Virus record (IMG/VR): IMGVR_UViG_3300025674_000014
Source: a virus
Lineage: Duplodnaviria > Caudoviricetes
Direction: 5' to 3' (one strand)
Length of the DNA stretch: 64,000 bases
Shown: positions 11,062-62,174 of the stretch, in pieces
Position numbering within the stretch: position 1 is the stretch's first letter
Layout of the letters: each line of letters opens with the position of its first letter
Program-made: the position numbers and the translations under genes
The notes under the pieces: model-generated
Seen by the model: only the letters and a program-made list of their open reading frames with translations
What the model was told of the DNA's origin: nothing
Database searches by the model: none

Positions 11062-11757
11062 ATGACAGTATTAAATCCAAACAACCCTATTGGGCAAATT
11101 AATATATTTGCTTTACCTAGAAGCGGAGGAACTCTCTTGAATATTTTTCTTAGACGGTTCGTTTGCTTCAAGTGTAGTTTAGTGCATCCGATGATGATTC
11201 ATTCTGATGATGTATCTAATTATGGGCCTCATAATATTATGCTGTTAAGACACCCTTATGGTGTATTTGGATCTATGCTTCATGTTGATAGTATTGACCC
11301 TGTTAACAAAAAGGTAAGAGTCAATCCAAATAACGCTGCTGCAAAATTAAACGATATTAGTAGTATGTATGATAGGTTTTTATCATTATTAGATAATAAT
11401 AAAGATAATAACATCCATGTAAAGTATGAAGACTTTCATGAGAATTATGATTACTTTTTAGAGTTGGTAAAGCATTATAATATTGAAATCAATCAAGATG
11501 ATTTTAATATATTCAAATCAGACTTTGACGTGCATGCAGTAAGAAATGATATATATTCTGATACTAAAAAGGAAAAAGACTTTAGACCTAATCATGTAAG
11601 TAGTGGAAGAGGTAGTAACACAGCTAACATGAAACTTGTGCCTAGCGGTATGCGAGAAGAAGTATCAGAAAGATTAAAGCCATTCTGCGATAAATTAGGT
11701 TATGAAGCATTTTCTTTTGTTGACGTACCTGATGAATTAGCTTACGATTTACATTAA
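11062..11757 (+). CDS. Sulfotransferase-family protein
   Basis: 5'-PSB loop FALPRSGGTLL, 3'-PB LLRHPxxxxxS, VKYEDF. Confidence 0.75.
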   Translation: MTVLNPNNPIGQINIFALPRSGGTLLNIFLRRFVCFKCSLVHPMMIHSDDVSNYGPHNIMLLRHPYGVFGSMLHVDSIDPVNKKVRVNPNNAAAKLNDISSMYDRFLSLLDNNKDNNIHVKYEDFHENYDYFLELVKHYNIEINQDDFNIFKSDFDVHAVRNDIYSDTKKEKDFRPNHVSSGRGSNTANMKLVPSGMREEVSERLKPFCDKLGYEAFSFVDVPDELAYDLH

Positions 11758-11767
11758 ATATAAATAA

Positions 11768-12664: not shown

Positions 12665-13339
12665 TTATTTAGTCTTTATAAAAGGCATTAACCATGTACC
12701 TAAATTATCAGAAGAAGAAGCAAAAGGTTCATCTTTTTCAAACCCGTATTGCTGAACAGCATGACTGATGTTTTCTATTTTTAATTCAACATTCCAATCA
12801 TGAACTATCATACAATCACCTACTTTACAGAATTGAGCATATGTGTTAAACTCTCTTGCTTTGTCACCACCGTCACAAAATATTAGTGACTTAAACTGCG
12901 ATATGTTTTCAGATACATGACGCATAGTACTTTCACTAAAAACATTATCATGAAAGTAATTTATGTAAGGTGAAATATCAGCTAATTTTTCAAACCAATG
13001 ACCACATCCTTCAAGAGTTCTATTTTTCCAATCCTTATCAGGATTAATTTCATATGTATCAAAAAACATATCTTCACACACACCTGCATAATTAGCAAAA
13101 TATGTACTTAGACATCCTTTTTGACTACCGAACTCTACCATATATTGAAATTTGTGATTATCAAAATAATATTCAAACCAAGGAATAGCAAAATAGTTTT
13201 GAGACATTCCCCCTCCAATATATTTTTGATTGATACCTTTTAGTTTTTCAATAGTAAGGGGTTCATCTTTATAAATCCTTTTAGGAATCCTATCATCAGA
13301 AGCTTGAATATTTTGTAGTATATTTTTATCGTATTTCAT
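12665..13339 (-). CDS. Class I SAM-dependent methyltransferase (CmcI/Methyltransf_24-like)
   Basis: VEFGSQKG motif I, IFCDGG, IVHDW. Confidence 0.75.
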   Translation of the reverse strand: MKYDKNILQNIQASDDRIPKRIYKDEPLTIEKLKGINQKYIGGGMSQNYFAIPWFEYYFDNHKFQYMVEFGSQKGCLSTYFANYAGVCEDMFFDTYEINPDKDWKNRTLEGCGHWFEKLADISPYINYFHDNVFSESTMRHVSENISQFKSLIFCDGGDKAREFNTYAQFCKVGDCMIVHDWNVELKIENISHAVQQYGFEKDEPFASSSDNLGTWLMPFIKTK

Positions 13340-14308: not shown

Positions 14309-14335
14309 GGCGGAATATTCCTTAAATAGGAATGA

Positions 14336-15172
14336 ATGAAGACAATTGTAGCAAGTTTGTGTTTAGATGGATCAATGGCTCAGTCTAATAGATATAAGTT
14401 CAGATCTAAGATACTAATAGATTCAACAATGAAGTATACAAACTTCGATGTTCTAATTGTCACTGATGAACCTGAATACTACGAAGAGTATAATGACAAT
14501 CCAAGAGTGTTTATAGAAGATTTTGTTACAAACTTTCCTGATGATAAAACTATGCTTGGAGGTATGTTTAATTTTAATCTTAAAAGATGTCCTATCAAGT
14601 TAGCTTATCAAAAAGATTATGATGTTGTTTTTTATCAAGATTGTGATGGTTTCTTTTCTGGATGGGATCAAGAGAGCTATGAAGATATGCTCAACTCAGA
14701 ATATGAAATATTCTATGCTACATTTTATCCTCACCATACAGTTAATGATCAGCTAAGTAAGCCTCATAATCATCCAAGTACTGGTCCAAGAGTAAAAGCT
14801 ATGGGTGATTTGATCTATCCAGATTTACTTGATGCTGTCTTAGCAGTTGAAACAAAAATGATATACAAAAACTCCTCCAAGATGAAAGACTTAATCGATA
14901 TATGGGATAAGTTTTCTTATAGATGTCAAGAGTTAAACTTAGCTGTTGTACCAGAGAGTTTATTCTTTTGTATGGCCGGTCGTCATGCTAAGATGGAACC
15001 TATAGGGGTAGAAAGAAACCACCCTATAGGTAAGTTGTGTAATACAATACACGGTTGTTGGATAGAGAAAAAGAATGGTATAGAAGACCCAGTTAAGATG
15101 CTAGACTACTTTGGCTTATTAGAAAGAAGATTTAAATCAGAAGAAGATTTAAGACTATTCCTTGACATCTGA
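14336..15172 (+). CDS. GT-A fold glycosyltransferase-like protein
   Basis: VLIVTD, then YDVVFYQDCD (DxD motif); TAAATA 7 nt upstream. Confidence 0.65.
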   Translation: MKTIVASLCLDGSMAQSNRYKFRSKILIDSTMKYTNFDVLIVTDEPEYYEEYNDNPRVFIEDFVTNFPDDKTMLGGMFNFNLKRCPIKLAYQKDYDVVFYQDCDGFFSGWDQESYEDMLNSEYEIFYATFYPHHTVNDQLSKPHNHPSTGPRVKAMGDLIYPDLLDAVLAVETKMIYKNSSKMKDLIDIWDKFSYRCQELNLAVVPESLFFCMAGRHAKMEPIGVERNHPIGKLCNTIHGCWIEKKNGIEDPVKMLDYFGLLERRFKSEEDLRLFLDI

Positions 15173-18084: not shown

Positions 18085-18092
18085 ACGCATAT

Positions 18093-18549: not shown

Positions 18550-18582
18550 TTTAATTATTTAATTATTTGGATAAGTATATAT

Positions 18583-20310
18583 GTGCATGATAAAGTTATA
18601 GTAGGTATATCAGGAGGCCATAACGCTGGCATCACAATATATAATAAAGGGGAAATTATTGCAATAGAACTAGAGAGGCTTTTCAATTATAAGAACTTAG
18701 CCTGGTGTAATTTCTGTACCATGATGGGAGGAGATTACATGACTAAATTAATCAAACATTACATAAAAGAAAAATATGGAATAGATAAGATTGATTTAAT
18801 AAGAACTATTAACTCTGATTGGGGTAATAAACAAATTGGTCCTTTGTTCAATACCGAACTAACTGAACATAATCAAATAAGAATTGATAAAGATTATAAT
18901 ACTATTGAGGTTAATTCAGATACAGAGATGACTAGCGGTAATGGATGGGCTGCTTATCATCATAAATCACACGCTGCAGGTACATTCTATCAAAGTTCAT
19001 TTAATAAAGCATTAGTATTTTCTTTTGATGGTGGAGGTGACGATGGATGGAACATAGGGTATTATTTTGATAAACTTCAACCTAAAGAAAATCATGTTAA
19101 AACCGTAATGTTTAATTTCAATGATTATGGTAATCCGTATTTCTATCTAGGGTACTTCATTGATGATATAACTTTTATAAAAGATTATGGTAAAGCTTGT
19201 TTAACATATGCAGGTAAGCTTATGGGTTATTGCTCTTATGGTAGTGTAAGAGAAGATTGGATTGAACCATTAAAAGATTATTATAAGAGATGGAATAGAG
19301 CAGGCTGGTATTGTGTTGAAACAGATGCTAAACTCTTCATGGAAGAGTTGGGTAAGAAAATAAATGTAAGCTTTGCTTATGGAGATGATAATGAACCTGA
19401 CCCTAACAATAGGTTAAAGGGTGTTGTAGCAAAAGATCTAATTGCAACTAGTCAATATGTATTTGAAGAGTTACACTTTGCTGAGATTAAACCTTTAATC
19501 GATGAATATAAAACTAATGTATGCTTAACTGGAGGGTGTGCTATGAACATCTTATACAATAACAAAGTAAGAAAGTATGTAAGAGAAGTTATTGGTAAAG
19601 ATGTTTATGTTGCTCCTAATTCATCTGATTGTGGGTTAAGTACAGGGTTAGTATTAGATCATTTAAGACCAATGATATCTTTTGATTTAACATATGCTGG
19701 TGAAGAAGTATATGATGATAATAATATCTTTTACTACATGCTTAGAAATAATTCTCCGTTAGATATATCTTATGTAGTTAATAAGATGTTTAACCAAAAT
19801 AGTATCTATGGAGTGGTTCAAGGAAGAGCTGAGCATGGGCCTAGAGCATTAGGTAATAGATCAATCATTTGTTCACCTAAGAAAGGTATGAAAGATATAC
19901 TTAACAACAGAGTTAAACATAGAGAGTACTTCAGACCTTTTGCTCCTATAGTTAGACTAGAAGATGTATCGACTTACTTTGATTGGGAAGGTGAGAGTAG
20001 ACATATGAACTTTGCTGCTTTTGTCAGAGAAGAATATAGAGATGATTTAGCTAGTATATCTCATGAAGACGGTACAGCTAGAATACAAACAGTAACAAGA
20101 GAACAGAATGAGTTAATGTATGATCTTTTAACTGAAGTATCTAATCAAGGACATATACCTGTGTTGTTAAATACATCGTTTAATGTAGCAGGTAAACCTA
20201 TTCTTAATACATATAAAGATGCATTCGAGATATTAGATAAAGAAGATATGAATGGTCTTATTATTAAGTCTAAATATCTCGAAGATATTACTTTGTTTGA
20301 AAAGCGTTAA
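18583..20310 (+). CDS. O-carbamoyltransferase (NodU/CmcH family)
   Basis: ELERL, HHKSHAA, FDGGGD, AGKLMG, LTGGCAMN, SSDCGLSTG, RAEHGPRALGNRSI, FRPFAP, HEDGTARIQTV, LLNTSFN. Confidence 0.95.
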   Translation: MHDKVIVGISGGHNAGITIYNKGEIIAIELERLFNYKNLAWCNFCTMMGGDYMTKLIKHYIKEKYGIDKIDLIRTINSDWGNKQIGPLFNTELTEHNQIRIDKDYNTIEVNSDTEMTSGNGWAAYHHKSHAAGTFYQSSFNKALVFSFDGGGDDGWNIGYYFDKLQPKENHVKTVMFNFNDYGNPYFYLGYFIDDITFIKDYGKACLTYAGKLMGYCSYGSVREDWIEPLKDYYKRWNRAGWYCVETDAKLFMEELGKKINVSFAYGDDNEPDPNNRLKGVVAKDLIATSQYVFEELHFAEIKPLIDEYKTNVCLTGGCAMNILYNNKVRKYVREVIGKDVYVAPNSSDCGLSTGLVLDHLRPMISFDLTYAGEEVYDDNNIFYYMLRNNSPLDISYVVNKMFNQNSIYGVVQGRAEHGPRALGNRSIICSPKKGMKDILNNRVKHREYFRPFAPIVRLEDVSTYFDWEGESRHMNFAAFVREEYRDDLASISHEDGTARIQTVTREQNELMYDLLTEVSNQGHIPVLLNTSFNVAGKPILNTYKDAFEILDKEDMNGLIIKSKYLEDITLFEKR

Positions 20311-21155
20311 GCTAAATACTCTTTAAACATTGGCATGTCTTTATAGAACTCTCTATCTTGCTCAAAATTTCTACTTGGTGATGTATGAAAGTCACAGAAG
20401 GTTGGAATGACTGGAGCTTGTTTTACTTCACCAAAACTATTACCAATTGTCAAACTTAACTCAAATGACTCTCCATAATTGTCATCAAGATAATTAGTTA
20501 AACAATACTTAACTAAGTTATGGGTAACTACATAGAATTTATTTTCTTTAGCTTTATACTCTAAATCATCTAAATCTCTATTGATAATAATACAAGTCTC
20601 TACAGGAAAGGCTAGATTATTATCTTCACATTTAGCTAAGTTAATTTGAGGCGACTTTAACACCTCACCTATAAACCGACCCCCATCTTTGTAGTAACGT
20701 TCACCTCTTTGCCATAAATGATGCTCAATAATCTCTTCTTCTTTATTAAACTTATGACAATCTTTATAATATATACCTGCAGGGTGAGATGTATATTTTT
20801 CTAACATTTCTCTTTTAACGCAAGGAAATGTATCACTATCATACCATACAAATAGATTATGAGTCGTATCTCTCTTTAAAGCATCAATCAATAAGAGATG
20901 TTTAACAATAGTATTTTGTCTAAAGTTATCTTTATCTACTACAGGCCAACCTTGAGGTAGATAATAAGGCATGACAGTGAGTTTTATTTTACAATTTACA
21001 TCTTTGAATAGATCAACGTGATCTGTTATGATAACAAGTTCATCCTCACTGTCATACCCACATTTATCGAACGTTTTAATGCTGTCTAGGCACAATTTAC
21101 TATACTTTTCACCAACAGCTACCGTTGCGAATAAAGCTTTAATTTGCATCTTCAT
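20307..21155 (-). CDS. GT-A fold glycosyltransferase-like protein
   Basis: FATVAVGEKY, VIITD, LFVWYDSD (DxD motif); start probably 21155 or 21149. Confidence 0.65.
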   Translation of the reverse strand: MKMQIKALFATVAVGEKYSKLCLDSIKTFDKCGYDSEDELVIITDHVDLFKDVNCKIKLTVMPYYLPQGWPVVDKDNFRQNTIVKHLLLIDALKRDTTHNLFVWYDSDTFPCVKREMLEKYTSHPAGIYYKDCHKFNKEEEIIEHHLWQRGERYYKDGGRFIGEVLKSPQINLAKCEDNNLAFPVETCIIINRDLDDLEYKAKENKFYVVTHNLVKYCLTNYLDDNYGESFELSLTIGNSFGEVKQAPVIPTFCDFHTSPSRNFEQDREFYKDMPMFKEYLA

Positions 21156-22448: not shown

Positions 22449-24515
22449 TTAACTTCTAGTTACTGTATGTGTGAATGGATAGTTATCTTTTTCCCATTGT
22501 TGATAACTTACAAGAGGTTCAATTTGAATATATGTTTGATTAGGAGCTTTTGCAATTGGATATCTTCCGCCTTCTTCAGTTACAAATTTTTCAAAGTCTG
22601 GATAATCTCTTTTTACTATATCTAAATCCCAATCTCTATGAATTTTGCAGGGGTTACTAAAGTCTTCATTCCAAGGCCTATAATAATCATCAAAATCATC
22701 AATTTCATTTTTAATGTCTACTTTATAGATTATATAAGTAGCCTGGGTAATCAACGGTGATAAATCTTTAACTGATGGAGTTGTTAATTGTATAGGAGGA
22801 CCCATAGATAAAGCTACTGTACCTACAGGAATTGTAGTGTAATTTACTCTCTGGCTAAATGTACCTGCTTCAAGATGAGTACCACCATCGGGTAAAATAA
22901 ATTTAGCTTCGTTATCTTCAGGGCTTATAATATTTCTTCTAAGTTGCGTAATATCTAAAGAAGAAACAAATACAATGTAGTTAACATCTATATTTACATT
23001 CCATACCCCACCGGTAATTATTTGATCAGCCTCACCGGGTAAAGCAATATTACAAGTAATAGGTCCTTCAACGACATTTCCAAAACCAAACGAGAAAACA
23101 CTTCGTAAAGGTTCGTCTGGCACCACAGGGTTGACAGGCGGTACAATTATAGGTGGTTCTTCAGGTGGAGGTATAACGGGTGGTATAACAGGCGGTTCGT
23201 TTGATACTGGAGGTGGTTCAACTGGAGGTGGTGTTTCAATAACAGGTGGGTTAAAAGTATCTACAGGTGATGAAGAGCATTCAACTGATGTAACCCAGTT
23301 AGTAACTGTAATAATAGGGTCATCACTAGTAAAGTTAACAAAGGGTTGTAGGTTATATAAAGAATAATCTACAGGTATTTTAACTTTAGCAATATTTTCA
23401 CCTGTTACTTTTTCTAAAGGTACACCAAAGCTACTAATAACATTGTTAGCTTTATATCTTAAACCTAAAGTAACAGTAGACGGGTCAATACTACTATTAA
23501 GACCCTTATAAAATATCCAAACCTCTTTACTATTACATTTAGGAGGACTAGATGGAGGAGGTGTAGGAGGTACTGCTACTCTAGGAGCTCTAGATTCGGA
23601 AGGAGATACTGTTCTTGTTGGTGTTGCTCCTGGGGTAGAGGTTCTACTTTTTGTTCTTGTTTGGGTTGGAGATTGTGATCTTGTTCTAGTTTGAGTTTTA
23701 GTTCTAGTTGCTGTAGGAGTTTGAGATCTTGTTCTGGTAAATGTTGGTGTAAGTGTTCTTGTAGGTGTAGCATCTGGAGTTTGCGATGGTGTAATGGTTC
23801 TAGTTTGAGTTGGAGTTACAAATCTTCTTAAAACAAAATTGTTAACATAATTAGGATTCTCTAATTCAATCTTTACAATAGGATCTTTAGATGATAAAGG
23901 TAACGTTTGTGAATCTAACAGATTCATTTTATCTGATATATTATATACACTATCCCTTGCAATTAAAATATCAATTACATATTCATCAACTAAACCATCT
24001 TGTCTATATGCAGAGAATCTAGATGTAAATGTTTTCTCTTCACCATCTTCATCTTTAAGATAATAATCATACGGGTAAAGAATATTTTTAGGGTTGTTAT
24101 TAGTATTTCCTCCAATAGCAAATTTGTAAGGCAACCCTTTATCAAACTCTAAACTTTCACCATTATAAGTTACAGTCTGATATATTCCGGATAATGGTTC
24201 AAATACAATTTTTACAATTGTATTATTACTATCATTGATACCTGATAAATTATATACAATTGTATTATACTCACTATATTTGACACTGCTCAAATTAACA
24301 GTTGTCGTTCTTTTGTAAACCAATTCATTACTATTAAACTCGTAACCTGAAAATGATTGAGCAAATGTATCAGAAGTAAACGTAACACTTTCTGCTGTGT
24401 TAGTGTAATAGTCACTGCTTGAATCTACAGGGTTTTTAAAATAGTAGCCAGATGCTACAGCAGCACTAAGTACTGAATAATCTGTTGAGTTTGTTATATA
24501 GATTGATGTTTCCAT
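22449..24515 (-). CDS. Putative baseplate-associated fibre/spike protein with Thr-rich and Pro-rich linkers
   Basis: TPTQTRT-type repeats and a PPVIPP tract; last large gene of the gp25-gp6 operon. Confidence 0.6.
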   Translation of the reverse strand: METSIYITNSTDYSVLSAAVASGYYFKNPVDSSSDYYTNTAESVTFTSDTFAQSFSGYEFNSNELVYKRTTTVNLSSVKYSEYNTIVYNLSGINDSNNTIVKIVFEPLSGIYQTVTYNGESLEFDKGLPYKFAIGGNTNNNPKNILYPYDYYLKDEDGEEKTFTSRFSAYRQDGLVDEYVIDILIARDSVYNISDKMNLLDSQTLPLSSKDPIVKIELENPNYVNNFVLRRFVTPTQTRTITPSQTPDATPTRTLTPTFTRTRSQTPTATRTKTQTRTRSQSPTQTRTKSRTSTPGATPTRTVSPSESRAPRVAVPPTPPPSSPPKCNSKEVWIFYKGLNSSIDPSTVTLGLRYKANNVISSFGVPLEKVTGENIAKVKIPVDYSLYNLQPFVNFTSDDPIITVTNWVTSVECSSSPVDTFNPPVIETPPPVEPPPVSNEPPVIPPVIPPPEEPPIIVPPVNPVVPDEPLRSVFSFGFGNVVEGPITCNIALPGEADQIITGGVWNVNIDVNYIVFVSSLDITQLRRNIISPEDNEAKFILPDGGTHLEAGTFSQRVNYTTIPVGTVALSMGPPIQLTTPSVKDLSPLITQATYIIYKVDIKNEIDDFDDYYRPWNEDFSNPCKIHRDWDLDIVKRDYPDFEKFVTEEGGRYPIAKAPNQTYIQIEPLVSYQQWEKDNYPFTHTVTRS

Positions 24516-29600: not shown

Positions 29601-29812
29601 AAAGTATTTTTAACTACATTCCACGAAGTTAAATATTTTTGATAGGAATTTTTAAAAGTTTCAATTGAAACCGAGTTGTTTTTAAAGTAAGAAAGCCAGG
29701 ATTTAAAATCTAGAGGATTATTATAATCTACAGCATCGGATAAATTACCTAAAACGGTAATTGATCTTTCGATTTTATAATCACTAAATCTATCTATAGT
29801 GTTAACTGGCAT
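26696..29812 (-). CDS. Large putative baseplate wedge protein (gp7-like position)
   Basis: 1038 aa, downstream of gp6, own late motif; family not recognised directly. Confidence 0.5.
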   Translation of the reverse strand: MPVNTIDRFSDYKIERSITVLGNLSDAVDYNNPLDFKSWLSYFKNNSVSIETFKNSYQKYLTSWNVVKNTFLINQNNDVKQQYISLVEQISLDVFTEQERKFLRSIDYKDSEQLDTIVPLVASKIKSLTSYYKNFRETVKTQPRRNNIFSSNIGITSFLTKLISDLLNYNSDTISLAHRFGANKNFVLSNVNYVIDELYDNYDDYFDLTASVPASGYEYGGKERNDQWNSNTNPWDPDLFINYDNSIVRTLSSYNYILEDFISNLSFPVSLNSTDVDYLKNKDFINQLNDGNTDNLNLQNKKALFEKFIGTDWYYLTAGENTSEALSGKLLEAKNISQNYLNRNNVSTATLPNTAFLVREKDIGGFYKPSNLGTLVYNVFKFNYNINYQALSGNTIYYFPDPTKYIGTYGNSKYTKSTFEIFDVNENAYIVNYDVSNSAAFGYINDNSFYLNFHGYENVEEKNQIYSSGVSRNYDKVDFFKGKGDIWSNNDIYNINNKALYPIDERQNSLLVGNNSLVFNSSDIYGNSIGLLKSSTKSLFNSVSSTYNNITQRCLFLSNGLFFINNEPFNYTSAIDGDYGEFIYDILPSQSFTTSLCSLGDLEFTTETSSRLYNGSFDMPWCFTSSIFYNRGNTYDGVFYSTFNNVLLPDSPSSDSPSWNQNIQTVYYNKLVDGASDINGNRPNFVRTATFLRSLSSVIDCGRFEYVNQLDPFNLSNVELKRFDKIKHYGTILEGLSTQYVNEDATSNKSIYDKKYQLSSYSYFRDLNNNVTPLSASLSAIFVKYSAKSEIYNELNNNIIKLDVVFDVCVIETPNYQVIEKIDYDYSTGKVLAFNSSLNYISRITSGNTHIEKFGNFYYHEKSNTILFHKTSIHSALSATNYKYLYPTIYKMELDSLNLRQIFPKSTNSLIYRELSAYSFRSINNINSSIVDASDPYYNVYEVDRPVLTYDSETNTYSYVIKSVDLSDSIAFYYQNYKFINGKFENVDNEIYFQNSRIRNENYSNPLTASFIDYNYLDGTQQSVWLESEGVLKLGEQQ

Positions 29813-29829
29813 TGATAATATTTAATAAG

Positions 29830-46978: not shown

Positions 46979-46989
46979 AATAATATTTA

Positions 46990-48232: not shown

Positions 48233-48241
48233 ATTGTATAT

Positions 48242-48439: not shown

Positions 48440-48468
48440 AATTTATGATAATATATTTCTTTAAAATT

Positions 48469-49734: not shown

Positions 49735-49735
49735 A

Positions 49736-51763: not shown

Positions 51764-51781
51764 ATATGATTATTTATTAAA

Positions 51782-53295: not shown

Positions 53296-55071
53296 TTATT
53301 GAACCGGGGCTGGTTCTGCGGCAGGAGCGGCACCTCCTTCAGGCGGAACTTCGCCTCCAGTTACATCAGGCCCGCCTCCTTCTGGTGGAGGACCAAAATC
53401 AGGGGGTAGGCCTGAACCGCCACCTGCGGGTATTGCACCTCCACCAGCTTCCATTCCTTCTCCCCCTTCGGCTCCACCAGAGGCAATAGCCTCTCTCCAA
53501 TTAGGACCACTAGCTTCAATCTGAGCTAATTCCCAAGTGAGTTCTTTGTCCTTGCGTAAAAATTCTCTATTAGCTTTAACTTCAATATCAGACCAACCTA
53601 AGTACTTCTTCTGAGCCCAAGTATTAGAAACAAACTCACTATTAGTTAAACTTGACCAGTTATTAACTTTAAGCTCAAGCTTTTGCTGCTCTCGCATTTC
53701 AAAGAAGTTAGAAGGTACATTAAACTCTAAATCTAAATTTAGTTCTTTTAGATTATATTTCTCCCATATCTTCTTAAGTTTAAGATGAGTTATAAAGCCA
53801 TTCTTTAATCCTGCAGCAAACTGCATTTGCATACGAATAATAAAACGAGCAAACTTAAGTTCTTCTCTTAATATATCTGTACCATCCTGAAATGATTGCT
53901 CAGGGTTTAATCTAGTTACAGGTACTTTAAGTGACTTATATAACTTCTTCATGAAGTACATTAAGTCTTCCAACTCACCTAAATTCTGACCACCAGCTAA
54001 AGTTGTAACACTTGTACCTTCACTACCTGCTCTCTTTGCAAACCAAAAAGAGTCTAGCATTGACTGAGGTGAAAATTTCATTACCTGACCACTACTATCA
54101 GTATCATATGTATGTCTACTCCAATATTTTTGCTGAAGGTTTCTTAGATAACCTTCTGCTTTAGGAGGTGACATATTACCTACATCTACATTGAATACTA
54201 ACTTCTCAGGTGCTCTTACTAATCTATATATAACAATTGCATCTTCAATGAGAGATAACTGTCTATAAGCTCTTCTAGCATTCTCTAAGTAAGGTAATCT
54301 AATTGTCTTATTATCATTCCAGATACCAGAGTTAACATATGTAACCTGATTTTTGTCCATTGGAATGAGTTGCATGTCCTCAATCTTAGTAGGATTCTCT
54401 TCATTAAAGACAGGTTTTCTTAAAAGATAACCTTGAACAATACTATTTTGAATATTACCAAAAATTGGATCGATGAGTTCGGTGGGAATTTGTACTGTAC
54501 CTAAAATACCTTCTTTTGGGTGATCTTTATGAATAATATGTTCCCAATAAACTTCACCCTCTACAAGTAATTGTCTAAAATATTCCCAACCTTTATGCTC
54601 TAAATCAAAGTAACTAATGAACTTCTGAAATTCATCTTCTAATTGCTTTTGTTCATTAGGTTTAAACTCTCTATGTAAAAATTTTAATTTTACAATCTCA
54701 CCGTTAGCATCTTTGTTTATAATCTCATCACAAATTTCATCTAATGCATCTCCAACTTCAGCAAATGCTGCCATTACTCTATAATCACGAATTCTTGCTG
54801 CTTTATCTTGCTGAATATTCGCATACATGAACTCCTGAAAGCCCTTGTCCATTGCGATATCACCAACAGCTGAATTATTAATAGGTGTAGATGATGAAAT
54901 AGATTGACGCTGTAATGCGTCTTCACGACGACTACCTTCGCCTTGAAATAGCTTATACTTAGGGTTTACGTCATTTAACGTTTCGATAGTTTGATAAGAC
55001 TGATAAGGAAGTCTGCTTTGTACATACTTCATTAACGAACGTCCAAATGTATTTTTATTTCCTGTACCCAT
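53296..55071 (-). CDS. gp20: Portal vertex protein, T4 gp20-like
   Basis: RQLSLIEDAIVIYRLVRAPEKLVFNVDVGNM, FWFAKR, GTSVTTLAGGQNLGE, LYKSLKVPVTRL, ILREELKF. Confidence 0.97.
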   Translation of the reverse strand: MGTGNKNTFGRSLMKYVQSRLPYQSYQTIETLNDVNPKYKLFQGEGSRREDALQRQSISSSTPINNSAVGDIAMDKGFQEFMYANIQQDKAARIRDYRVMAAFAEVGDALDEICDEIINKDANGEIVKLKFLHREFKPNEQKQLEDEFQKFISYFDLEHKGWEYFRQLLVEGEVYWEHIIHKDHPKEGILGTVQIPTELIDPIFGNIQNSIVQGYLLRKPVFNEENPTKIEDMQLIPMDKNQVTYVNSGIWNDNKTIRLPYLENARRAYRQLSLIEDAIVIYRLVRAPEKLVFNVDVGNMSPPKAEGYLRNLQQKYWSRHTYDTDSSGQVMKFSPQSMLDSFWFAKRAGSEGTSVTTLAGGQNLGELEDLMYFMKKLYKSLKVPVTRLNPEQSFQDGTDILREELKFARFIIRMQMQFAAGLKNGFITHLKLKKIWEKYNLKELNLDLEFNVPSNFFEMREQQKLELKVNNWSSLTNSEFVSNTWAQKKYLGWSDIEVKANREFLRKDKELTWELAQIEASGPNWREAIASGGAEGGEGMEAGGGAIPAGGGSGLPPDFGPPPEGGGPDVTGGEVPPEGGAAPAAEPAPVQ

Positions 55072-55075
55072 TATA

Positions 55076-55792
55076 TTAGCATGATTGTGAACTTGACCTA
55101 GATAATGTTATACTCTTGGTTCTTGTTCTTGTAATTGTACTTGTTCTTGTTTGTGATTTAGTAACTGAAGGGGTAATACAAGATGTAGGTCGAGTACATG
55201 AATTAGTTCTAGTTACTGTATTAGTAGGGGTTTTTGTTCTTGTGCCTGTCGGTGTTGGTGTAGCATAATAGCTAACAGTTGGTGAAATTGATTTTGTTAA
55301 TGTTGGTGTAGGTGTTTGTGTTCTTGTTCTGGTTTGTGTTGGTGTTTGAGATCTTGTTCTAGTAGTTGTAGCTGATTGAGTAATAGTAGCAGTTGGTAAA
55401 GGTGTTGCACTTGGTGTCTCTGTTCTTGTTCTTGTAATAGTAGGTGTTTGAGATCTTGTTGCAGTACTTGTAGCACATTGTGTACCGGTTCTTGTTCTGG
55501 TAGTTGAATTAGTACATGTTATGGTAGGCGTAACTAATGGCGTACCAGTTCTTGTTCTTGTCTGAGTTGGTGTGCTTGTACCGGTTTGTGTAGATGTTCT
55601 TGAAAACGTATATGTAGGGGTATAAGTTTGTGAATTTGTCCTGGTTGTCGTAGGAGAAGGTGTATTACAAACTGTTGGGCTGCAAGTTACAGCTGGTATA
55701 CCATGCACATTGGCCTGAGCCCAATTAGAAGCTCTCTGAGGACCACCGTTAGCTTGTCTTATTAAATCTCTAAATGTAGGTATACCTGCCAC
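55076..55792 (-). CDS. Thr-rich low-complexity late protein
   Basis: About 79 of 238 residues are Thr (hand count), 7 Cys; TAAATA-N5-GTG. Confidence 0.7.
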   Translation of the reverse strand: MAGIPTFRDLIRQANGGPQRASNWAQANVHGIPAVTCSPTVCNTPSPTTTRTNSQTYTPTYTFSRTSTQTGTSTPTQTRTRTGTPLVTPTITCTNSTTRTRTGTQCATSTATRSQTPTITRTRTETPSATPLPTATITQSATTTRTRSQTPTQTRTRTQTPTPTLTKSISPTVSYYATPTPTGTRTKTPTNTVTRTNSCTRPTSCITPSVTKSQTRTSTITRTRTKSITLSRSSSQSC

Positions 55793-55813: not shown

Positions 55814-57175
55814 TTAAGGGTCAAATGAAGTAGTTGCAGGAAAACCAGTAGAACCTGCTTGCCAATACATTTTACCACCTATCATAGCAGTTAATGCTGA
55901 TTGTCTACTACTAATTACTTGCATATCATAACCTTTATAACCTATATCTATTTCATCTCCTTTATAAGCTGATAAATTAAACATATTAGCTACATTTGTT
56001 ATTTTATTAGCAACCCCTATAGTTCCATTACCTGCAAAATTAAGACCTATAACTTTCCATGCAGATAATGCGGGATTAGTAGAATTAAACAATGCACATA
56101 CAAAAGAACCTGAATCACCTCCTGAAGATGGAGATAAACTAGATGAATTACCTCTAAAAAATATTTGATCTTCAAATCCTAACGTCCCTACATTACCACC
56201 ATAGCTAACATTAGCTCCACCAATACTATAAGCACTTAACCTACAAGTAAAACCATAAGGATCACTACCAGGCCAACCTACAGGACCCTCAGTTCTACCA
56301 GATCTAAATACAGGAGCACCTAACTCGGTGGTTAATAATGAATTTATTTCTGAATCAGTAGCCCAATCCATAGGCTGACTTATATCTAATTGATATTGCT
56401 GCCAGTTAGTAGATGAACCCGATAAATTAAGAGTATGTGTACCAGATAATGCAAATGAACAAACATCAACTCTATTACCAGAAGATTTAAAAGGGTAAGC
56501 TTTTTTAACAGTACCCACAGTTAAAGGTTGCATTAACGATTGTGTAACTGTAAATTTATCATACGTAGATCTTTGATATACCGGGTATCTGTCATCACCA
56601 GGTGAAGAAGTCGTATCGTTAACTGAAAGATATGTCCAAAAAGTTAAACCACTATCGTTAGTAAAAGCTCCTCCTAAATCACCAGCTAAAGTATTTTTAC
56701 TTAAAACGTGATTGTTACTAACTCCTACAATAGTGTAATCTTCTAAATCAACAGCTAACCCACCCAATGTACCGGTATCAACTGAACTTCCTCCCCAGCC
56801 ATCCGGAGGTACAGTACCAACTGATATACCACCTACTAATGGTCTATGTTCTACTCTACTACCACTAACAGGCATTAACCAAGTACTTTGAGGAGTAGAT
56901 GGATCTGGTAAAGTATAACACCCGGTTGCTGATAAAGAAGGTACTTCCACAACATCCGTTGCATAAGTTACACCATCTACTTCAACTGAAGATGGAAATA
57001 AATCCTCTTGAGGTATATCACTTAAAGGTAACTTCTTTTCAACAAATAAAGTTAAACAAGGCTGTTGGGTTTCAACACCTTGAACTTCTTTTTTTGAAAC
57101 AACAACACCATTCCAGTTGACGTTAGAATCAAAAAGTTGATTTGCTTTTATAGTTAAATTATCAATATTACTCAT
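55814..57175 (-). CDS. Trypsin-like serine protease, Nal1-like
   Basis: Triad motifs SNNHVL, RVDVC, GGDSGS; GTLGG; N-terminal LTLFVEKKLP...VDGV..TDVVEV module. Confidence 0.85.
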   Translation of the reverse strand: MSNIDNLTIKANQLFDSNVNWNGVVVSKKEVQGVETQQPCLTLFVEKKLPLSDIPQEDLFPSSVEVDGVTYATDVVEVPSLSATGCYTLPDPSTPQSTWLMPVSGSRVEHRPLVGGISVGTVPPDGWGGSSVDTGTLGGLAVDLEDYTIVGVSNNHVLSKNTLAGDLGGAFTNDSGLTFWTYLSVNDTTSSPGDDRYPVYQRSTYDKFTVTQSLMQPLTVGTVKKAYPFKSSGNRVDVCSFALSGTHTLNLSGSSTNWQQYQLDISQPMDWATDSEINSLLTTELGAPVFRSGRTEGPVGWPGSDPYGFTCRLSAYSIGGANVSYGGNVGTLGFEDQIFFRGNSSSLSPSSGGDSGSFVCALFNSTNPALSAWKVIGLNFAGNGTIGVANKITNVANMFNLSAYKGDEIDIGYKGYDMQVISSRQSALTAMIGGKMYWQAGSTGFPATTSFDP

Positions 57176-60100
57176 CGTAGTATCTTACATAAATCTGATT
57201 AGCATGTGATGTAGGTGTCTTAGTTTTAGTAGGGGTTTGAGTTGCAGTTCTTGTAGGTGTTACCGTTGGTGTAGGAGTTAGAGTACCTGACTGAGTAGCA
57301 GTCCTGGTTTGAGTAGGGGTAGGTGTAACAGGTACGGTTGGTCTAGAATTTTTATAGGGGTGATTAGAAGGTAAACTAGAAACTAAACCCCACTTCCAAG
57401 CAAGATACCCCTCTGCTTTTTCAATAGTAGAAATATCAGTACCCGATGTACCAGGTAATTGACCAGCAGCAAAAAATTCAGCTAATCTACCATCTAGTTC
57501 CTGTGATGCTCTATTACGGAATAACCTAAGCTGTTGATTAGTTGAAATGCTATTTGTATAATCATTAACCGGGGTAAATGCATTAGAACCATTAACTCTA
57601 ACTGAAATTTGATTACCTGTTTTATTAAAATTAGATGCAATTATAGTATAATTATATCTAGTAACGCTTTGTAAATTCCATGATTGCAAGTTACCTATAG
57701 TATTAGAAATTCTACCAGAACTTAATCCATCTAAGTCTAATTCACCTGGCCAAGTATTAGAACTGCTAGCAGAACTTATTGCATAATCTCGTTTTGGTGA
57801 TTGATTTGTTTCGTAGGACCAGAAAGAATCTTGTGAATTATTAGTTGTATCGTATCTAAATACCCCTATAGCCCAATGGTTACCAGACGAAACCTGGCTA
57901 CTATAACCAGTACTTTGTAGGTACTCATTACTACCATTAAATGTAAATACATTAAGACTATTCTGGTTGTTAGTAGTAGTTGGTGTACCTCCTACCGTCA
58001 TTGTGTAAGTACCGGCTTTATCCGTTACAGACGTTAAAATACCTCCCGAGCTAGACCAACTTGATGTATCACTTGCATCAATCCAAGATACTAAATTACT
58101 TAAATCATCGGGCGCCCAATTAGCTCCAACTGTAGTGGGGGTAGGGGTTTGCGTACCTGTTCTAGTTTGGGTCGGTGTTTGGGTTTTAGTATTGGTTCTA
58201 GTTTGGGTGGGGGTCTGAGATCTAGTTTGAGTGTTTGTTCGTGAAGGTGTTTTAGTTTGAGTAGCTGCTGGTGTACCTGTACTGGTACTAGTGGGGGTAG
58301 GGGTTTGTGTACCTGTTCTAGTTTGAGTTTTAGTTCTGGTAGGTGTTACAGCAGGAGATGTAAAGTATATATTACCATTTCTAAACGTACCGTAATACCA
58401 AGTAGAAGAAGGAGCAAATTGTATTCTAAAAGTATCTCCCGTATAACCGTTATAAGAGTAACTAACAACAGATTTTATACTACTATCTAAGTAAACATAC
58501 ATTGTATCAAACGCAGGCCCACCAGTTAAATCTGTATCAAATTCAAAAACATCACCAGCAGAAGATTGGAAAGTAACCCCATTAGCACTTGGATGTGGAG
58601 CTGAACCGGTACCGGTTAAACTATTATTAAATGTACGTAAAGGTGTTTGGGTATTTGTTACTGTATTAGTTGGTGTGGTGGTTGGTGTTTGGGTTGTCGT
58701 TGGTGTTTGAGTTCTACTTCTGGTATTAGTAGGTGAAGGAGTTCTAGTTGATGTTTTAGTTGAGGTGCTTGTTGGTGATTGTGTAGGGGTAGGTGTGGTA
58801 GTTGGTGTCTGAGATGCGGTCCTTGTATTAGTAGGGGTAGGTGTTAACCCTGGTGTATTAGATGAAGTTTGTGTTGGTGTCTGTGTATTTGTATTTGTAG
58901 GTGTAGGTGATTGACTATTTGTTCTAGTTTGGGTAGGTGTTTGGGTTCTACTTCTAGTATTAGTGGGTGTTCTAGTAGCAGTAACACCTGGTGTATCAGT
59001 CGAACTTGGAGTCCTGGTAACTGTAGGTGTTACTGTAGGACTAACAGATGCTGTTGGTGTGTTGGTAGAAGTTGAAGTATTTGTAGGGGTAATAGTTGGT
59101 GTATTTGTTCTTGTTCTAGATTGTGTTGTAGTTCTTGTATTAGTAGGAGTTGGGGTAATAGGACCTAAACTAAATCTAGGACGTAAAACGTTATAAGTTG
59201 AAACTATACTATCTTGGCTTAAAGCTATACCGGAATATGTTTTAATAATAGCTATATCAGCATCTAAATTAGAGTTATTACCTGAAAACCATTTCATTGG
59301 TGTGCTATTAGTAATAATACCAGAAGGTCTATTAGCTTCTGATATTGCTCTTATAGCACCATCAACATAAATTCTTAGTTTTGTAGAATCAGCTACAAAT
59401 GCAACTTGATGCCAGCTATTATCATTATAAGTTAAACTCGTTCTAGCAAAAATTTCATTACCGTCATTGTCTTTTTCCCAAAAGTCTAATTTACCTGCAT
59501 TAACAGTGTCTCCTGAGCCTCTAACACCCATCATGAAATAACAAACATTAGCTTGATTATTATAATCGGTTACTATAGGCACTGTATATGAAGATGCTGA
59601 AGAACTTATGTTTGATCTAACTCTAATCCAAAATATAAAAGTATAAGGGTATCTATTTTGTATAGGACCAGCTTCGGTTCTAGGAATTGCAGTATTTTTA
59701 GCTAATTGATAACCACAAACCATACAATCTGTAGATCCATTTAAACAAAAATGATTTGACGGTCCAAAGTATGTCACATATTGAGGGGAACCACAAATGT
59801 ATAAATCATTATTTCTTCTTACATCACAAAATATATTACCGGAACCAGGGTAACTGTAAATGTTAGAAGCATCTACTTGCATAGTTAAATGACAGCAAGA
59901 ATAAGAAGCTTGAGTAGAAGTTCTTGTTTTAGTTGGGGTTGCTGTATAGGTGTTAGATGCAGTTCTAGTTGGGGTTGCAGTGGTAGCATTTCTAGTACGA
60001 GTACAAGTAGGTGTAGCTGTTGTAGCCATCCTAGTTGGTGTATAAGAAATTGTCGCAGTCTGTGAAGGTGTAAACGTTGGTGTTCTTGTTTGAGTTCTAG

Positions 60101-62174
60101 TTTCGGTAGGAGTATTACCTGGTGTAACCGATTGGGTAGATGTTCTAGTACTAGTGCGTGTTTGTGTTGGTGTTCTAGTCGGGGTCCTTGATCTGGTTTG
60201 AGTTGTTGTTCTTGTATTAGTTGGTGTTTGGGTTGCTGTTCTGGTATGGGTCCAGTTTCTGGTATTAGTTTGAGTGTTGGTAGGTGTTGTCGTAGGAGTG
60301 CTTGTAGAAGTTTTTGATAAAGTTATAGATTTTGTTTGAGTAGGTGTACCTGTAGGTGATGACCCGAAGGTAGGTGTTTGAGTCTGCGTAGGGGTTTGTG
60401 AAATAGATACTGTAATAGTTGCTGTATTAGTAGGTGTTCTAGTCTGGGTAGGGGTTTGAGTTACTTCAGGTAAATAAAATCTATGTTTTATGTTATTAAA
60501 ACTTTGCAATACTTGAGCAGTACTTAAAGCCTTTTCATAGACTTTAACGATAGCCATTTGTCCGTCAAAATTACCCGTACTATTAACAACGCTACCCAAT
60601 TTAGGGCTAACACTACTACTATAATCATACGTATCTGTAGTAGATAAATTAGTTACACCGTTTATATAAAGTCTAGAAGTTCCTGAAGACCTAACTAAAG
60701 CAAATTGATACCAGTAGCCGGTTTGTAAAGTAAAGCTTGTATCTTGTGTCCAACCTAAAGAAGGATTGTAATAAGAAAAGTAGTTATTATAAAAACCAAA
60801 AGTAAAATCTCCTGCAGTGTTATTGAAGTTAGATAAAAGTACAGATGAACCGTTATTTAAACTGTAAATTTTAGCCCATATAATATAACTAAAATCATTT
60901 GTACTTAAAGATGTTATATTGCTGCTGCTAATATCAATACTACTTCCCTGATCAAAAGTAAAGTTTTTAATAGAAGAGGGTGTTGAACCTGAATTATAAA
61001 AAACATCACCGCTTAGAGAACCGTTATTAGTATTTGAAGTTAAATCTGTCCATTGATTAGCTGTACCGGTGGACGAACTATTGTCGGCATCCAAATACAT
61101 TATTAACCCTTCAGTTAATGAACCTGTACTAGTACGGGTAATAGTATTTGTAGGTGTGGGGCTGTTGCTACTTGTTCTTGTTGATGTATGTGTGTTAGTT
61201 GGTGTCTTACTTGTTGTTGGTGTATTAGTAGATGTTACATCTGGTGTACCGGTTGGTGTGGCAGTATTAGTAGGGGTACGAGTAGCGGTTTCTGATGCAT
61301 TGGTAGTAGGTGTAATAGAGCTAGTTCTAGAAGGTGTTTTAGTATGAGTAACTTCAGGTGTCTGTGTTTGTGATGAAGTTTGTGTAGGTGTATAAGATGG
61401 TGAAGGAGTTTGGGTAGCTGTATTAGTGGTGGTTTGAGTTTGAGTAGAAGTATTAGTTGGGGTTTGAGTTTGAGTGCCTGTTTGTGTTCTTGTTAAAGTT
61501 TGAGAAGGTGTTGGTGTTAATGTTGTGGTATTAGTTGTAGTTGATGTAACCGTTACAGTGGGTGTAGGTGATGAACCTGTAGTAGCAGTAGATGTAACTG
61601 TACTTGTACTTGTTCTTGTAGCTGTATTTGTATTAGTTGGTGTTCTAGTCGGGGTGGGTGTATTGGTTGCAGTACCGGTAGGTGCTGGTGATGACCTTTC
61701 TGGTGTCTTTGTTGTATTAAGAGATTGAATATAAAAAGGGTAATCACTATTAATTGACGGAAATACATTATAGCCACCAGGACTGGTAATAAGAAACTTA
61801 AACTCACCTGTTGCAATACCAGATAAAGCTCCAAGACCCACTTGTACGGTATTTGATGTATAATCAAAAAATACATCACAACCTAAATCTAAAGCATTAT
61901 AAGCACTAAATGCAGGGTAAGTAGAAGATAATGATGGAATATCAGAGTAATAAGTTACACTACTTAAATTAACCGTTGAGAGAGAGTTGGGGATAAATGA
62001 AGATGGGTTAGAGCTGCTCAAATAAACCTGATAAGTCGAAGCTTTCCCTAAGCTGTTACCTGCACCGCCTCTAGTAAAAGGTATTTTAAAAACAAACGAT
62101 TTTTCATACTCACTGTAAATCAGTTTGTTAATTTGATTATTATTAATTAAAAGTTTTTGTCCAAATCTCTTCAT
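57168..62174 (-). CDS. 1668-aa modular virion adhesin/fibre with three LamG/ConA-like domains and Thr/Pro-rich linkers
   Basis: GLIMYLDA...QWTDL...KVYEKALS, LTMQVDAS...IIKTYS and WIDASD...AEGYLAWKWG domains separated by TPTQTRT-type repeats. Confidence 0.8.
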   Translation of the reverse strand: MKRFGQKLLINNNQINKLIYSEYEKSFVFKIPFTRGGAGNSLGKASTYQVYLSSSNPSSFIPNSLSTVNLSSVTYYSDIPSLSSTYPAFSAYNALDLGCDVFFDYTSNTVQVGLGALSGIATGEFKFLITSPGGYNVFPSINSDYPFYIQSLNTTKTPERSSPAPTGTATNTPTPTRTPTNTNTATRTSTSTVTSTATTGSSPTPTVTVTSTTTNTTTLTPTPSQTLTRTQTGTQTQTPTNTSTQTQTTTNTATQTPSPSYTPTQTSSQTQTPEVTHTKTPSRTSSITPTTNASETATRTPTNTATPTGTPDVTSTNTPTTSKTPTNTHTSTRTSSNSPTPTNTITRTSTGSLTEGLIMYLDADNSSSTGTANQWTDLTSNTNNGSLSGDVFYNSGSTPSSIKNFTFDQGSSIDISSSNITSLSTNDFSYIIWAKIYSLNNGSSVLLSNFNNTAGDFTFGFYNNYFSYYNPSLGWTQDTSFTLQTGYWYQFALVRSSGTSRLYINGVTNLSTTDTYDYSSSVSPKLGSVVNSTGNFDGQMAIVKVYEKALSTAQVLQSFNNIKHRFYLPEVTQTPTQTRTPTNTATITVSISQTPTQTQTPTFGSSPTGTPTQTKSITLSKTSTSTPTTTPTNTQTNTRNWTHTRTATQTPTNTRTTTQTRSRTPTRTPTQTRTSTRTSTQSVTPGNTPTETRTQTRTPTFTPSQTATISYTPTRMATTATPTCTRTRNATTATPTRTASNTYTATPTKTRTSTQASYSCCHLTMQVDASNIYSYPGSGNIFCDVRRNNDLYICGSPQYVTYFGPSNHFCLNGSTDCMVCGYQLAKNTAIPRTEAGPIQNRYPYTFIFWIRVRSNISSSASSYTVPIVTDYNNQANVCYFMMGVRGSGDTVNAGKLDFWEKDNDGNEIFARTSLTYNDNSWHQVAFVADSTKLRIYVDGAIRAISEANRPSGIITNSTPMKWFSGNNSNLDADIAIIKTYSGIALSQDSIVSTYNVLRPRFSLGPITPTPTNTRTTTQSRTRTNTPTITPTNTSTSTNTPTASVSPTVTPTVTRTPSSTDTPGVTATRTPTNTRSRTQTPTQTRTNSQSPTPTNTNTQTPTQTSSNTPGLTPTPTNTRTASQTPTTTPTPTQSPTSTSTKTSTRTPSPTNTRSRTQTPTTTQTPTTTPTNTVTNTQTPLRTFNNSLTGTGSAPHPSANGVTFQSSAGDVFEFDTDLTGGPAFDTMYVYLDSSIKSVVSYSYNGYTGDTFRIQFAPSSTWYYGTFRNGNIYFTSPAVTPTRTKTQTRTGTQTPTPTSTSTGTPAATQTKTPSRTNTQTRSQTPTQTRTNTKTQTPTQTRTGTQTPTPTTVGANWAPDDLSNLVSWIDASDTSSWSSSGGILTSVTDKAGTYTMTVGGTPTTTNNQNSLNVFTFNGSNEYLQSTGYSSQVSSGNHWAIGVFRYDTTNNSQDSFWSYETNQSPKRDYAISSASSSNTWPGELDLDGLSSGRISNTIGNLQSWNLQSVTRYNYTIIASNFNKTGNQISVRVNGSNAFTPVNDYTNSISTNQQLRLFRNRASQELDGRLAEFFAAGQLPGTSGTDISTIEKAEGYLAWKWGLVSSLPSNHPYKNSRPTVPVTPTPTQTRTATQSGTLTPTPTVTPTRTATQTPTKTKTPTSHANQIYVRYYDE

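Follow-up and report, generated by a model that had tools for sequence, protein, structure and literature searches.

The viral record IMGVR_UViG_3300025674_000014 of IMG/VR includes a 64-kb stretch of DNA, referred to here as the window, in which four structural genes code for proteins with long tracts of alternating threonine and five further genes code for predicted glycan-modifying enzymes. These tracts and enzymes were analyzed as the candidate substrates and tools of a phage-encoded virion glycosylation system. The window has a GC content of 31% and no tRNA genes. It codes for a gp20 portal protein, a gp15-like protein, a baseplate hub and gp6-, gp25- and gp53-like baseplate wedge proteins, together with two clamp-loader paralogues, a dUTPase and an exonuclease. 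With the portal proteins of cyanophages, pelagiphage HTVC008M and Aeh1, that of the window shares only ~31% identity, and the figure for any known phage is at most 33%, which points to a distant, uncultured, aquatic T4-like myovirus. No cultured close relative was found, and positions 40000 to 52000 of the window had no nucleotide match in the phage collection. Relatives in IMG/VR comprise 53 portal loci (58 to 100% identity), and use of the DUF932 protein as the search anchor retrieved only five close relatives. One protein of the window is recorded on a contig of 242,718 bp.

Alternating-threonine tracts in four structural proteins

A TxT tract was defined as at least five consecutive T-x pairs. 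When the six-frame translation of the whole window was scanned, exactly four open reading frames (ORFs) carried such tracts, all of them in structural operons. This bears out the preliminary description, which had noted four structural genes with long alternating-Thr tracts. The tracts total 736 residues in the four proteins versus ~16 expected, and composition-preserving shuffles gave means of 0.1, 1.1, 6.2 and 8.8 residues per protein, with maxima of 12 to 46. The four genes and their neighbors are as follows (aa, amino acids; nt, nucleotides).

22449..24515, minus strand: 688-aa fibre-module protein with Pro-rich linkers; 38 tract residues, at aa 234-279
24515..26686, minus strand: 723-aa fibre-module protein; 140 tract residues, with TxT blocks at aa 159-248 and 342-449; TAAATA 6 nt upstream of the start
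26696..32133, minus strand: two large baseplate/fibre proteins of 1038 aa and 767 aa (PKD domain), in the same operon, upstream of the TxT fibre genes
53296..55071, minus strand: portal protein gp20 (PHROG 213 at 5e-106)
55076..55792, minus strand: 238-aa protein whose gene immediately precedes that of the portal; 33% Thr, with 82 tract residues; TAAATA 5 nt upstream of the start
55814..57175, minus strand: 453-aa protein with a trypsin-like protease domain (PHROG 20754 at 5e-18); overlaps the stop of the 1668-aa gene
57168..62174, minus strand: 1668-aa protein; 476 tract residues, 23% Thr; two LamG domains (Pfam Laminin_G_3, 1e-23)
62174..62971, minus strand: gp15-like tail sheath stabiliser (Pfam T4-gp15_tss, 1.4e-20); TAAATA 6 nt upstream of the start

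The gp15-like gene opens the operon that contains the 1668-aa gene, and the genes for the 238-aa and 1668-aa proteins both lie between gp15 and the portal gene. The 238-aa protein, which is basic (27 K+R versus 2 D+E), adjoins the portal in all close relatives. In the 1668-aa protein, the long TxT tracts are linkers joining globular domains. The Thr codons within tracts are mixed (ACA 162, ACT 119, ACC 76, ACG 11), indicating that the tracts are not a simple DNA repeat and are under selection as protein sequence. The residues found most often at x are P (91), R (60), Q (57), N (36) and S (29), with E at 2 and D at 0; almost free of acidic residues, the tracts are therefore basic.

In an alignment of four orthologues of the 723-aa protein, Thr columns are 85% conserved, a value inflated by the aligner in low-complexity sequence, versus 21% for x columns and 51% for non-tract columns. 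The tract of the 688-aa protein is present in all orthologues (41 to 44% identity), and tract positions are kept among fibre orthologues that are 41 to 59% identical. Two strains with portal proteins 100% identical to that of the window (L001 and L014) lack ~950 bp of the 1668-aa gene (window 57230-58183), which code for its C-terminal globular module and flanking tract. The difference suggests that a module of the tract-rich gene was either gained or lost.

Judged by eye, aa 1-340 of the 723-aa protein resemble a lectin/ConA-type beta-sandwich interrupted by a 90-residue TxT insertion; this region has no match in Pfam.

The tracts could be a structural device only, either rigid polyproline-II/beta-type spacers or recombination-prone linkers, in which case the enzymes described below would be unrelated accessory genes of a hypervariable island with small-molecule or polysaccharide targets of their own. 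Their position between globular domains (LamG, lectin-like) is that of classic linkers, and L001 has lost the whole C-terminal module of the 1668-aa gene, as this explanation would allow. However, unprotected linkers of this length, with an Arg every 4 to 6 residues, would presumably be very protease-sensitive outside the cell.

Five predicted glycan-modifying enzymes

Five genes code for enzymes that could assemble or decorate a glycan.

11062..11757, plus strand: sulfotransferase-like protein, 231 aa, soluble (sub-threshold Pfam match, Atlas features and CurM profile match)
12665..13339, minus strand: CmcI / rhamnosyl-O-methyltransferase-like class I S-adenosylmethionine (SAM) methyltransferase, 224 aa (Atlas clusters)
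14336..15172, plus strand: GT#1, orphan GT-A-fold glycosyltransferase (GT), 278 aa (AlphaFold and Foldseek; DxD)
18583..20310, plus strand: NodU/CmcH-family O-carbamoyltransferase, 575 aa, GTG start, convergent on GT#2
20307..21155, minus strand: GT#2, orphan GT-A-fold (GT8/GT15-like) glycosyltransferase, 282 aa (AlphaFold and Foldseek; DxD)

The AlphaFold2 model of GT#1 (predicted local distance difference test score [pLDDT] 76.5, predicted template modeling score [pTM] 0.82) matched BoGT6a (4ayj, 3.5e-8), XXYLT1 and ABO GTA/GTB in Foldseek, as well as YfnF/YfnD and WbnI. Its D102-C-D104 motif is invariant in nine sequences and also across the extended GT#1 family. Only 8 homologues of GT#1 were found in 5.8 billion proteins, and a single-sequence search of viral contigs gave no match. 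The GT#2 model (pLDDT 84, pTM 0.86) matched Kre2/Mnt1, UGGT and XXYLT1, in addition to GLT8D1, GXYLT and KTR3; residues D106 and D108 are invariant in seven sequences, and 5.8 billion proteins held only 5 homologues. Compared with retaining GT-A transferases (GT6, GT8, GT15, GT24), the two models gave E values of 1e-7 to 1e-8 at a Foldseek probability of 1.00 and template modeling (TM) scores of ~0.45-0.59. Of the matched structures, BoGT6a and ABO belong to GT6, XXYLT1, GXYLT and GLT8D1 to GT8, Kre2/KTR to GT15 and UGGT to GT24. Neither protein matched a Pfam family at an E value of 0.01 or lower, so that neither is placed in Glyco_transf_6 or Glyco_transf_8. The resemblance to GT6 and GT8 is thus at the level of the fold only, and both proteins represent orphan GT-A families. 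A SERGT1/HPAT-like identity was ruled out for both, as a search of the Swiss-Prot AlphaFold models returned GT8, GT15 and GT6-like matches.

The carbamoyltransferase is a clear member of the NodU/CmcH family by its sequence, matching Pfam Carbam_trans_N at 8e-20 (72 bits, cut-off 24) and Carbam_trans_C at 4e-55 (186 bits, cut-off 27). For the sulfotransferase-like protein, the match to Pfam Sulfotransfer_3 (20 bits, E value of 8e-4) lies below the cut-off of 27. Its best profile match in the PDB is the CurM sulfotransferase (4gbm, E value of 0.004), and the alignment pairs PRSGGT with the 5'-PSB loop for 3'-phosphoadenosine-5'-phosphosulfate (PAPS), and RHPYGVFGS with the R-x7-S motif of the 3'-PB site. 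The Atlas feature score to Sulfotransfer_1/3 clusters is 0.96. The methyltransferase, which contains a VEFGSQKG motif, has no match in Pfam; in the Atlas, it matched viral RMNT_CmcI / Methyltransf_24 clusters by features (0.95-0.98) and by structure (TM 0.67-0.80), including clusters at TM 0.67-0.71 in which 47 to 100% of members have PF04989. The identities proposed in the preliminary description (two DxD GT-A-like genes, a NodU-like carbamoyltransferase, a sulfotransferase and a CmcI-like methyltransferase) all stood, those of the sulfotransferase and the methyltransferase as probable assignments. No membrane-spanning segment was found in any of the five enzymes, whereas the MotA-like and holin-like proteins used as controls do have them.

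Operon organization and late-type motifs

The fibre operon runs in the order gp6-like protein, 767-aa PKD protein, 1038-aa protein, 723-aa protein, 688-aa protein, small ORFs and, last, GT#2, which has no motif of its own. The order of fibres, small ORFs and GT#2 is preserved in five related loci (L077-L081). GT#2 thereby provides a direct linkage between a glycosyltransferase gene and structural genes, of the type known from mycobacteriophages.

11046..11051, plus strand: late-type TAAATA, 10 nt ahead of the ATG of the sulfotransferase gene; also before the orthologues in L077, L080 and G003
14323..14328, plus strand: late-type TAAATA, 7 nt ahead of the ATG of GT#1; conserved in L077, L080 and G003
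18572..18577, plus strand: TAAGTA variant motif before the GTG start of the carbamoyltransferase; conserved as GGATAAGTA in L077 and L080
21139..22274, minus strand: three small ORFs (216, 75-88 and 90 aa) of the same direction, separating GT#2 from the TxT fibre genes; TATAAAT-like motif before the 22274 start

TAAATA occurs within 20 nt upstream of 25 of the 61 gene starts versus ~1% expected; it lies 4 to 10 nt before 24 of them and 1 nt before the remaining one. The motif marks baseplate, fibre and gp15 genes as well as GT#1 and the sulfotransferase; replication genes have TTGA...TATAAT instead. By its sequence, the motif may correspond to the T4-type late element (TATAAATA-like, just upstream of the transcription start). 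The preliminary description had placed late-type motifs at positions 11046, 14323 and 18572. All three positions are correct, but TAAGTA at the last is a non-canonical variant.

Other genes lie among the enzymes. A KaiC/RecA-like ATPase (13362-14273, minus strand) and the DUF932 protein (15787-16773, minus strand) have an early-type TTGA...TATAAT upstream, and a staphylococcal-nuclease-like gene is found at 17722-18090 (minus strand). As early-type genes are interleaved with glycan enzymes that have late motifs, the region is a mosaic of expression classes. Beside the sulfotransferase, an HNH-type endonuclease-like ORF (10363-11028, plus strand) contains an HIDHIRP motif and has a late-type motif upstream. 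It has no match in the five close relatives L056-L060, the last of which lies within G003, and is probably a homing endonuclease insertion.

The position and motifs of the enzyme genes also bear on the idea that the enzymes act on phage DNA, through base hypermodification like the glucosyl-hydroxymethylcytosine of T4, with the Thr tracts unrelated. Phage GTs that modify DNA are well known (cited in PMC12619734). In this window, however, GT#1 and the sulfotransferase have the motif of structural genes and not the TTGA...TATAAT of replication genes, GT#2 belongs to the fibre operon, and the GT6/GT8/GT15-like folds of the two GTs are of a kind whose acceptors are glycans or protein-linked. Taken together, these three features make a role in DNA modification highly improbable.

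Enzyme content and tracts among relatives

Between strains that share 80 to 98% identity in the core genes of this region, identity drops to 25 to 59% for the sulfotransferase, GT#1, GT#2 and the fibre proteins, and not all strains have the same enzymes. Where the neighboring genes of two strains are 80 to 92% identical, the values for enzymes and fibres are 40 to 56%. In G003, neither the carbamoyltransferase nor the methyltransferase is present, with a GT#2 paralogue and a 314-aa protein in the slot; L056 lacks the carbamoyltransferase and GT#2; and L059 lacks the sulfotransferase and GT#1. The methyltransferase was not found in L056, L057, L059 or G003. In G003, L056 and L059, both fibre proteins retain their TxT tracts, at unchanged positions. 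Low identity and differing content make the enzymes a hypervariable set, co-varying with the fibres, of which no member is obligatory. A near-identical strain carries a GT2/GT7C-type enzyme and a GT10-like enzyme 6 to 9 kb past the end of the window.

For the wider clade, whole records were searched for Thr tracts, with eight alternating ACN codons counted as a run.

G003, 69 kb, close relative: 95
G005, 97 kb, portal ~64% identical: 152
G002, complete, 209 kb: 3
G004, fragment: 0
G006, fragment: 0

The complete genome G002 has none of the five enzyme families but carries three GT2 genes and one GT4 gene, so that GT presence alone does not track the tracts. The simple correlation between Thr-tract and GT gene content across relatives, which the preliminary description had put forward as a check, consequently cannot tell the genomes apart. 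In the structural operon of G002, pure poly-Thr runs occur in two proteins, one being a homologue of the 453-aa protease-like protein of the window, and one of the GT2 genes comes directly after them on the same strand. With poly-Thr directly upstream of a GT2 gene, G002 is not a clean negative control. In G005, a PF11397 (GT60) homologue (E value of 1e-64), a CmcI-like methyltransferase and an HtrL/YibB-like protein are coded in the slot that comes after the fibres and a TxT protein of 480 aa.

G005, C1:30961-32298, minus strand: GT60-like gene (PF11397)

A glycosyltransferase thus stands directly after Thr-tract structural genes in three subclades, and its family differs among them (GT8-like, GT60-like and GT2).

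The main rival to glycosylation of the virion is that the enzymes remodel glycans of the host envelope (lipopolysaccharide [LPS], O-antigen, capsule or S-layer), while the TxT tracts are unmodified, extended Pro/Thr spacers. The purpose would be to block superinfection or to free progeny from debris, and fibres and enzymes would co-vary through the receptor glycan of the host. The strain-to-strain variation of the enzymes resembles that of host-range genes, TxT-poor relatives still have GT2 and GT4 genes, and the best fold matches include the O-antigen/glycan-extending enzymes WbnI, WbbM and BoGT6a. Moreover, marine T4-like cyanophages have carbamoyltransferases and LPS-type clusters (PMC3037559). 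Remodelling of the host, however, needs time before lysis, with which late-type motifs and placement in or beside structural operons fit poorly, and it leaves the conserved Thr alternation with a free x unexplained. None of the enzymes has a membrane anchor, which also speaks against action on the envelope, although many LPS GTs are peripheral too. The same variation bears on the explanation of the tracts as a structural device, which would account for patchy enzyme content and for the nearby HNH endonuclease gene, a mark of a plastic region.

GT60-like genes directly after threonine-tract genes

An IMG/VR scan for 14 alternating ACN codons yielded more than 120 stretches. Most of those listed read in frame as TPTxT-type tracts, and the ORFs concerned are very large and come from aquatic phage contigs of low GC content. 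The TxT loci include CmcI-like methyltransferases as well as GT60-like, HtrL-like and GT#1-family genes. In protists, it is the GT60 enzymes, polypeptide alpha-GlcNAc-transferases, that initiate mucin-type O-glycans (PMC8724618). With the GT60-like proteins as query, at least 576 viral matches were obtained, and the cassette statistics cover the best 80 of these at least 576 loci (L202-L281). TxT ORFs lie directly upstream on the same strand in 73 of the 80 GT60 loci, typically ending no more than ~100 nt before the GT60 start. The other seven loci have little or no upstream DNA, so the arrangement holds in 73 of the 73 informative loci. Control loci of the carbamoyltransferase family, with an equal amount of DNA, had TxT ORFs in 0 of 80 cases (Fisher 1e-37 versus the GT60 loci). 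An HtrL/YibB-like gene is paired with the GT60-like gene in nearly every locus (79/80).

L102, 4399-5739, minus strand: GT60-like gene (PF11397/GT60 family)

Two enzyme families of the window also recur in these cassettes, namely GT#1 (11-14/80 versus 0/80 controls) and the methyltransferase (7/80 versus 0/80). In L110, a GT#1-like gene, a methyltransferase gene, an HtrL-like gene and genes for four TxT proteins form one operon.

At another locus (L150:59-5513), a GT60-like gene occurs with two 2OG-Fe(II)_Oxy_3 (prolyl-hydroxylase-type) genes, a carbamoyltransferase gene and a gene for a protein with a TPTPTP tract. The combination of oxygenases and TP tract raises the possibility that the glycans on TP repeats are hydroxyproline-linked and not Thr-linked.

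These associations speak to both remaining alternatives. If the tracts were structural devices only, GT genes would not be expected to follow Thr-tract genes repeatedly, with three GT families in three subclades and in many other phages, nor would GT#1 and the methyltransferase be enriched in GT60 cassettes; we regard that explanation as improbable. Host-glycan remodelling leaves the GT60 genes directly after TxT genes in all 73 informative loci unexplained. It gains from the carbamoyltransferase family, which is unlinked to TxT ORFs (0/80), and we consider it rather unlikely overall.

Several observations weigh against glycosylation of the tracts. Clustered at 90% identity, the 80 GT60 loci collapse into only 19 groups and are therefore not independent. 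None of the 80 GT60 cassettes contains a member of the sulfotransferase, GT#2 or carbamoyltransferase family, and the loci of the last family in turn have TxT ORFs in 0 of 80 cases. Each of the five enzymes is absent from some close relative with TxT fibres, and the region upstream of the methyltransferase is TATAAT-type, without a late motif. No PF11397 homologue was detected among the window ORFs (phmmer) or in the fragments of close relatives, nor was a recognisable initiating polypeptide O-glycosyltransferase of the GT60, GT27, GT41 or GtfA type. GT6/GT8-like enzymes mostly extend glycans and seldom start on protein. The aligner effect on Thr conservation counts here as well. Finally, T4-like cyanophages carry carbamoyltransferases and 'LPS' clusters with no assigned role and without a known virion glycan (PMC3037559).

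Other genes of the window

Tandem clamp-loader (gp44-like) paralogues are located at 35111-36028 and 36049-37083 (both minus strand); in G002 and G005, both have the same single best match. An Mtd_N domain (major tropism determinant N-terminal, E value of ~1e-9) opens two adjacent large proteins, at 48469-49734 and 49736-51763 (both minus strand). Just downstream of the portal gene lies the gene for a 252-aa Cys/Pro/Thr-rich protein without a family match (52002-52760, minus strand). The window further codes for a MotA/TolQ/ExbB-like proton-channel protein (8309-8872, plus strand; 1.5e-17) and a GTA_holin_3TM-type holin (47272-47841, plus strand; 2.3e-17).

Comparison with known glycosylation systems

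Serine-rich repeat glycoproteins of Gram-positive bacteria (GspB, Fap1, PsrP) are glycosylated by GtfA/GtfB and GT8-family enzymes. As in the window, long, strictly alternating hydroxy-amino-acid repeats (SxSx, here TxTx) occur on fibrillar surface proteins, and the enzymes are soluble and cytoplasmic, including GT8-type GT-A transferases. However, the window has no GtfA/GtfB pair and no accessory Sec system, the repeated residue is Thr instead of Ser, and x is basic or Pro instead of Ala, Val or Glu. The Nod-factor enzymes NodU, NodH and NodS likewise combine a carbamoyl-, a sulfo- and a methyltransferase in one genome, and the carbamoyltransferase of the window is a true NodU/CmcH protein. 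The genes of the window, however, are dispersed and do not make up a single operon, and close relatives lack some of them; the methyltransferase resembles CmcI / rhamnosyl-O-methyltransferases and not NodS, and a chitin-oligosaccharide synthase is missing from the window. The parallel with Nod factors is therefore an analogy only.

Mucin-type O-glycosylation by GT60 (Dictyostelium, Trypanosoma cruzi) or GT27 enzymes (PMC8724618) acts on dense Ser/Thr(/Pro) acceptor arrays of exposed proteins. Dense Thr/Pro-rich arrays, the presumed acceptor in this phage, are present as the 736 tract residues of the four structural-operon proteins, relatives including G005 code for PF11397/GT60 members directly after TxT genes, and retaining GT-A enzymes would extend the glycan. 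The system differs in that the window lacks a GT60 or GT27 enzyme, that the site would be the bacterial cytoplasm and not the Golgi, and that the phage tracts are strictly T-x-T and basic (R, K, Q, N, P) instead of mixed Ser/Thr/Pro.

Virion glycosylation by phage enzymes is described for the mycobacteriophages Che8, Corndog and Myrna (Freeman et al. 2023, as cited in PMC12619734). There, too, the phage GTs are located near structural genes and the proposed targets are the virion proteins of the phage itself. Those glycans are carried by C-terminal extensions of capsid and tail-tube subunits and have been shown experimentally, whereas the present system is a candidate. In the window, which belongs to a T4-like phage, the tracts are internal, run to hundreds of residues and lie in fibre-like, LamG and neck-region proteins; sulfo-, methyl- and carbamoyltransferases are present in addition, and the capsid and tube genes lie outside the window. 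The T4-like cyanophages P-SSM2, S-SM2 and S-SSM7 are similarly aquatic and have NodU/CmcH-type carbamoyltransferases and sugar genes, but their 'LPS' clusters are not reported beside Thr-tract fibre genes (PMC3037559).

Proposed glycosylation of the virion

Comparative gene context supports a functional link between the Thr tracts of the virion module and phage glycosyltransferases. Most probably, the Thr tracts on structural proteins are glycosylation substrates in this phage group. The fuller proposal, that the Thr tracts and soluble late phage glycosyltransferases constitute a mucin-like O-glycosylation of exposed virion proteins, is in our judgment evenly poised between acceptance and rejection.

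In this proposal, the alternating-Thr tracts would serve as O-glycosylation arrays on exposed fibre, baseplate and neck-region proteins and would be glycosylated in the host cytoplasm by soluble phage GTs made late in infection. The initiating enzyme may be one of the orphan GT-A proteins or may be coded outside the window. GT#2 and GT#1 (retaining GT-A, GT8/GT6-like) would build or extend the glycan, and the CmcI-like methyltransferase would O-methylate it. A place in the pathway is plausible for GT#2 given its operon position, and for GT#1 and the methyltransferase given their recurrent association with the cassettes. Decoration by the sulfotransferase and the carbamoyltransferase is less certain than methylation, as these two are tied to the system by proximity and strain variability, and the sulfotransferase additionally by its late-type motif. 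Of the decorated glycan coat envisaged in the preliminary description, the link between GTs and Thr tracts is thus upheld by gene context, while the involvement of these two enzymes and the coat itself are what we infer. Such a coat would likely protect the long Arg-rich linkers from proteases, stiffen the spacers and provide strain-specific surface variation.

A literature search on threonine-rich or mucin-like phage fibres and on GT60 in phages found no description of alternating-Thr fibre tracts or of phage GT60-type enzymes. To our knowledge, phage virion glycosylation has been shown experimentally for only a few mycobacteriophages, and the other known case is that of giant viruses of eukaryotes. 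A wider generalization is possible but, on balance, doubtful: aquatic T4-like and other large phages may share a modular virion 'glycocalyx', in which interchangeable GT cassettes (GT60-like, GT8-like, GT2) O-glycosylate alternating-Thr or poly-Thr fibre and neck proteins in the host cytoplasm. In the present lineage, the glycans would be methylated, sulfated and carbamoylated, and the resulting strain-variable, mucin-like, partly anionic coat on basic tracts would shape adsorption, protease resistance and particle stickiness. If this is true, the way in which host recognition, virion stability and particle aggregation in water are modelled would have to be revised, and enzymes that can be expressed in bacteria to glycosylate simple Thr-x repeats would be at hand. 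It would also offer an explanation for many of the orphan glycosyltransferases and 'LPS genes' of marine phage genomes.

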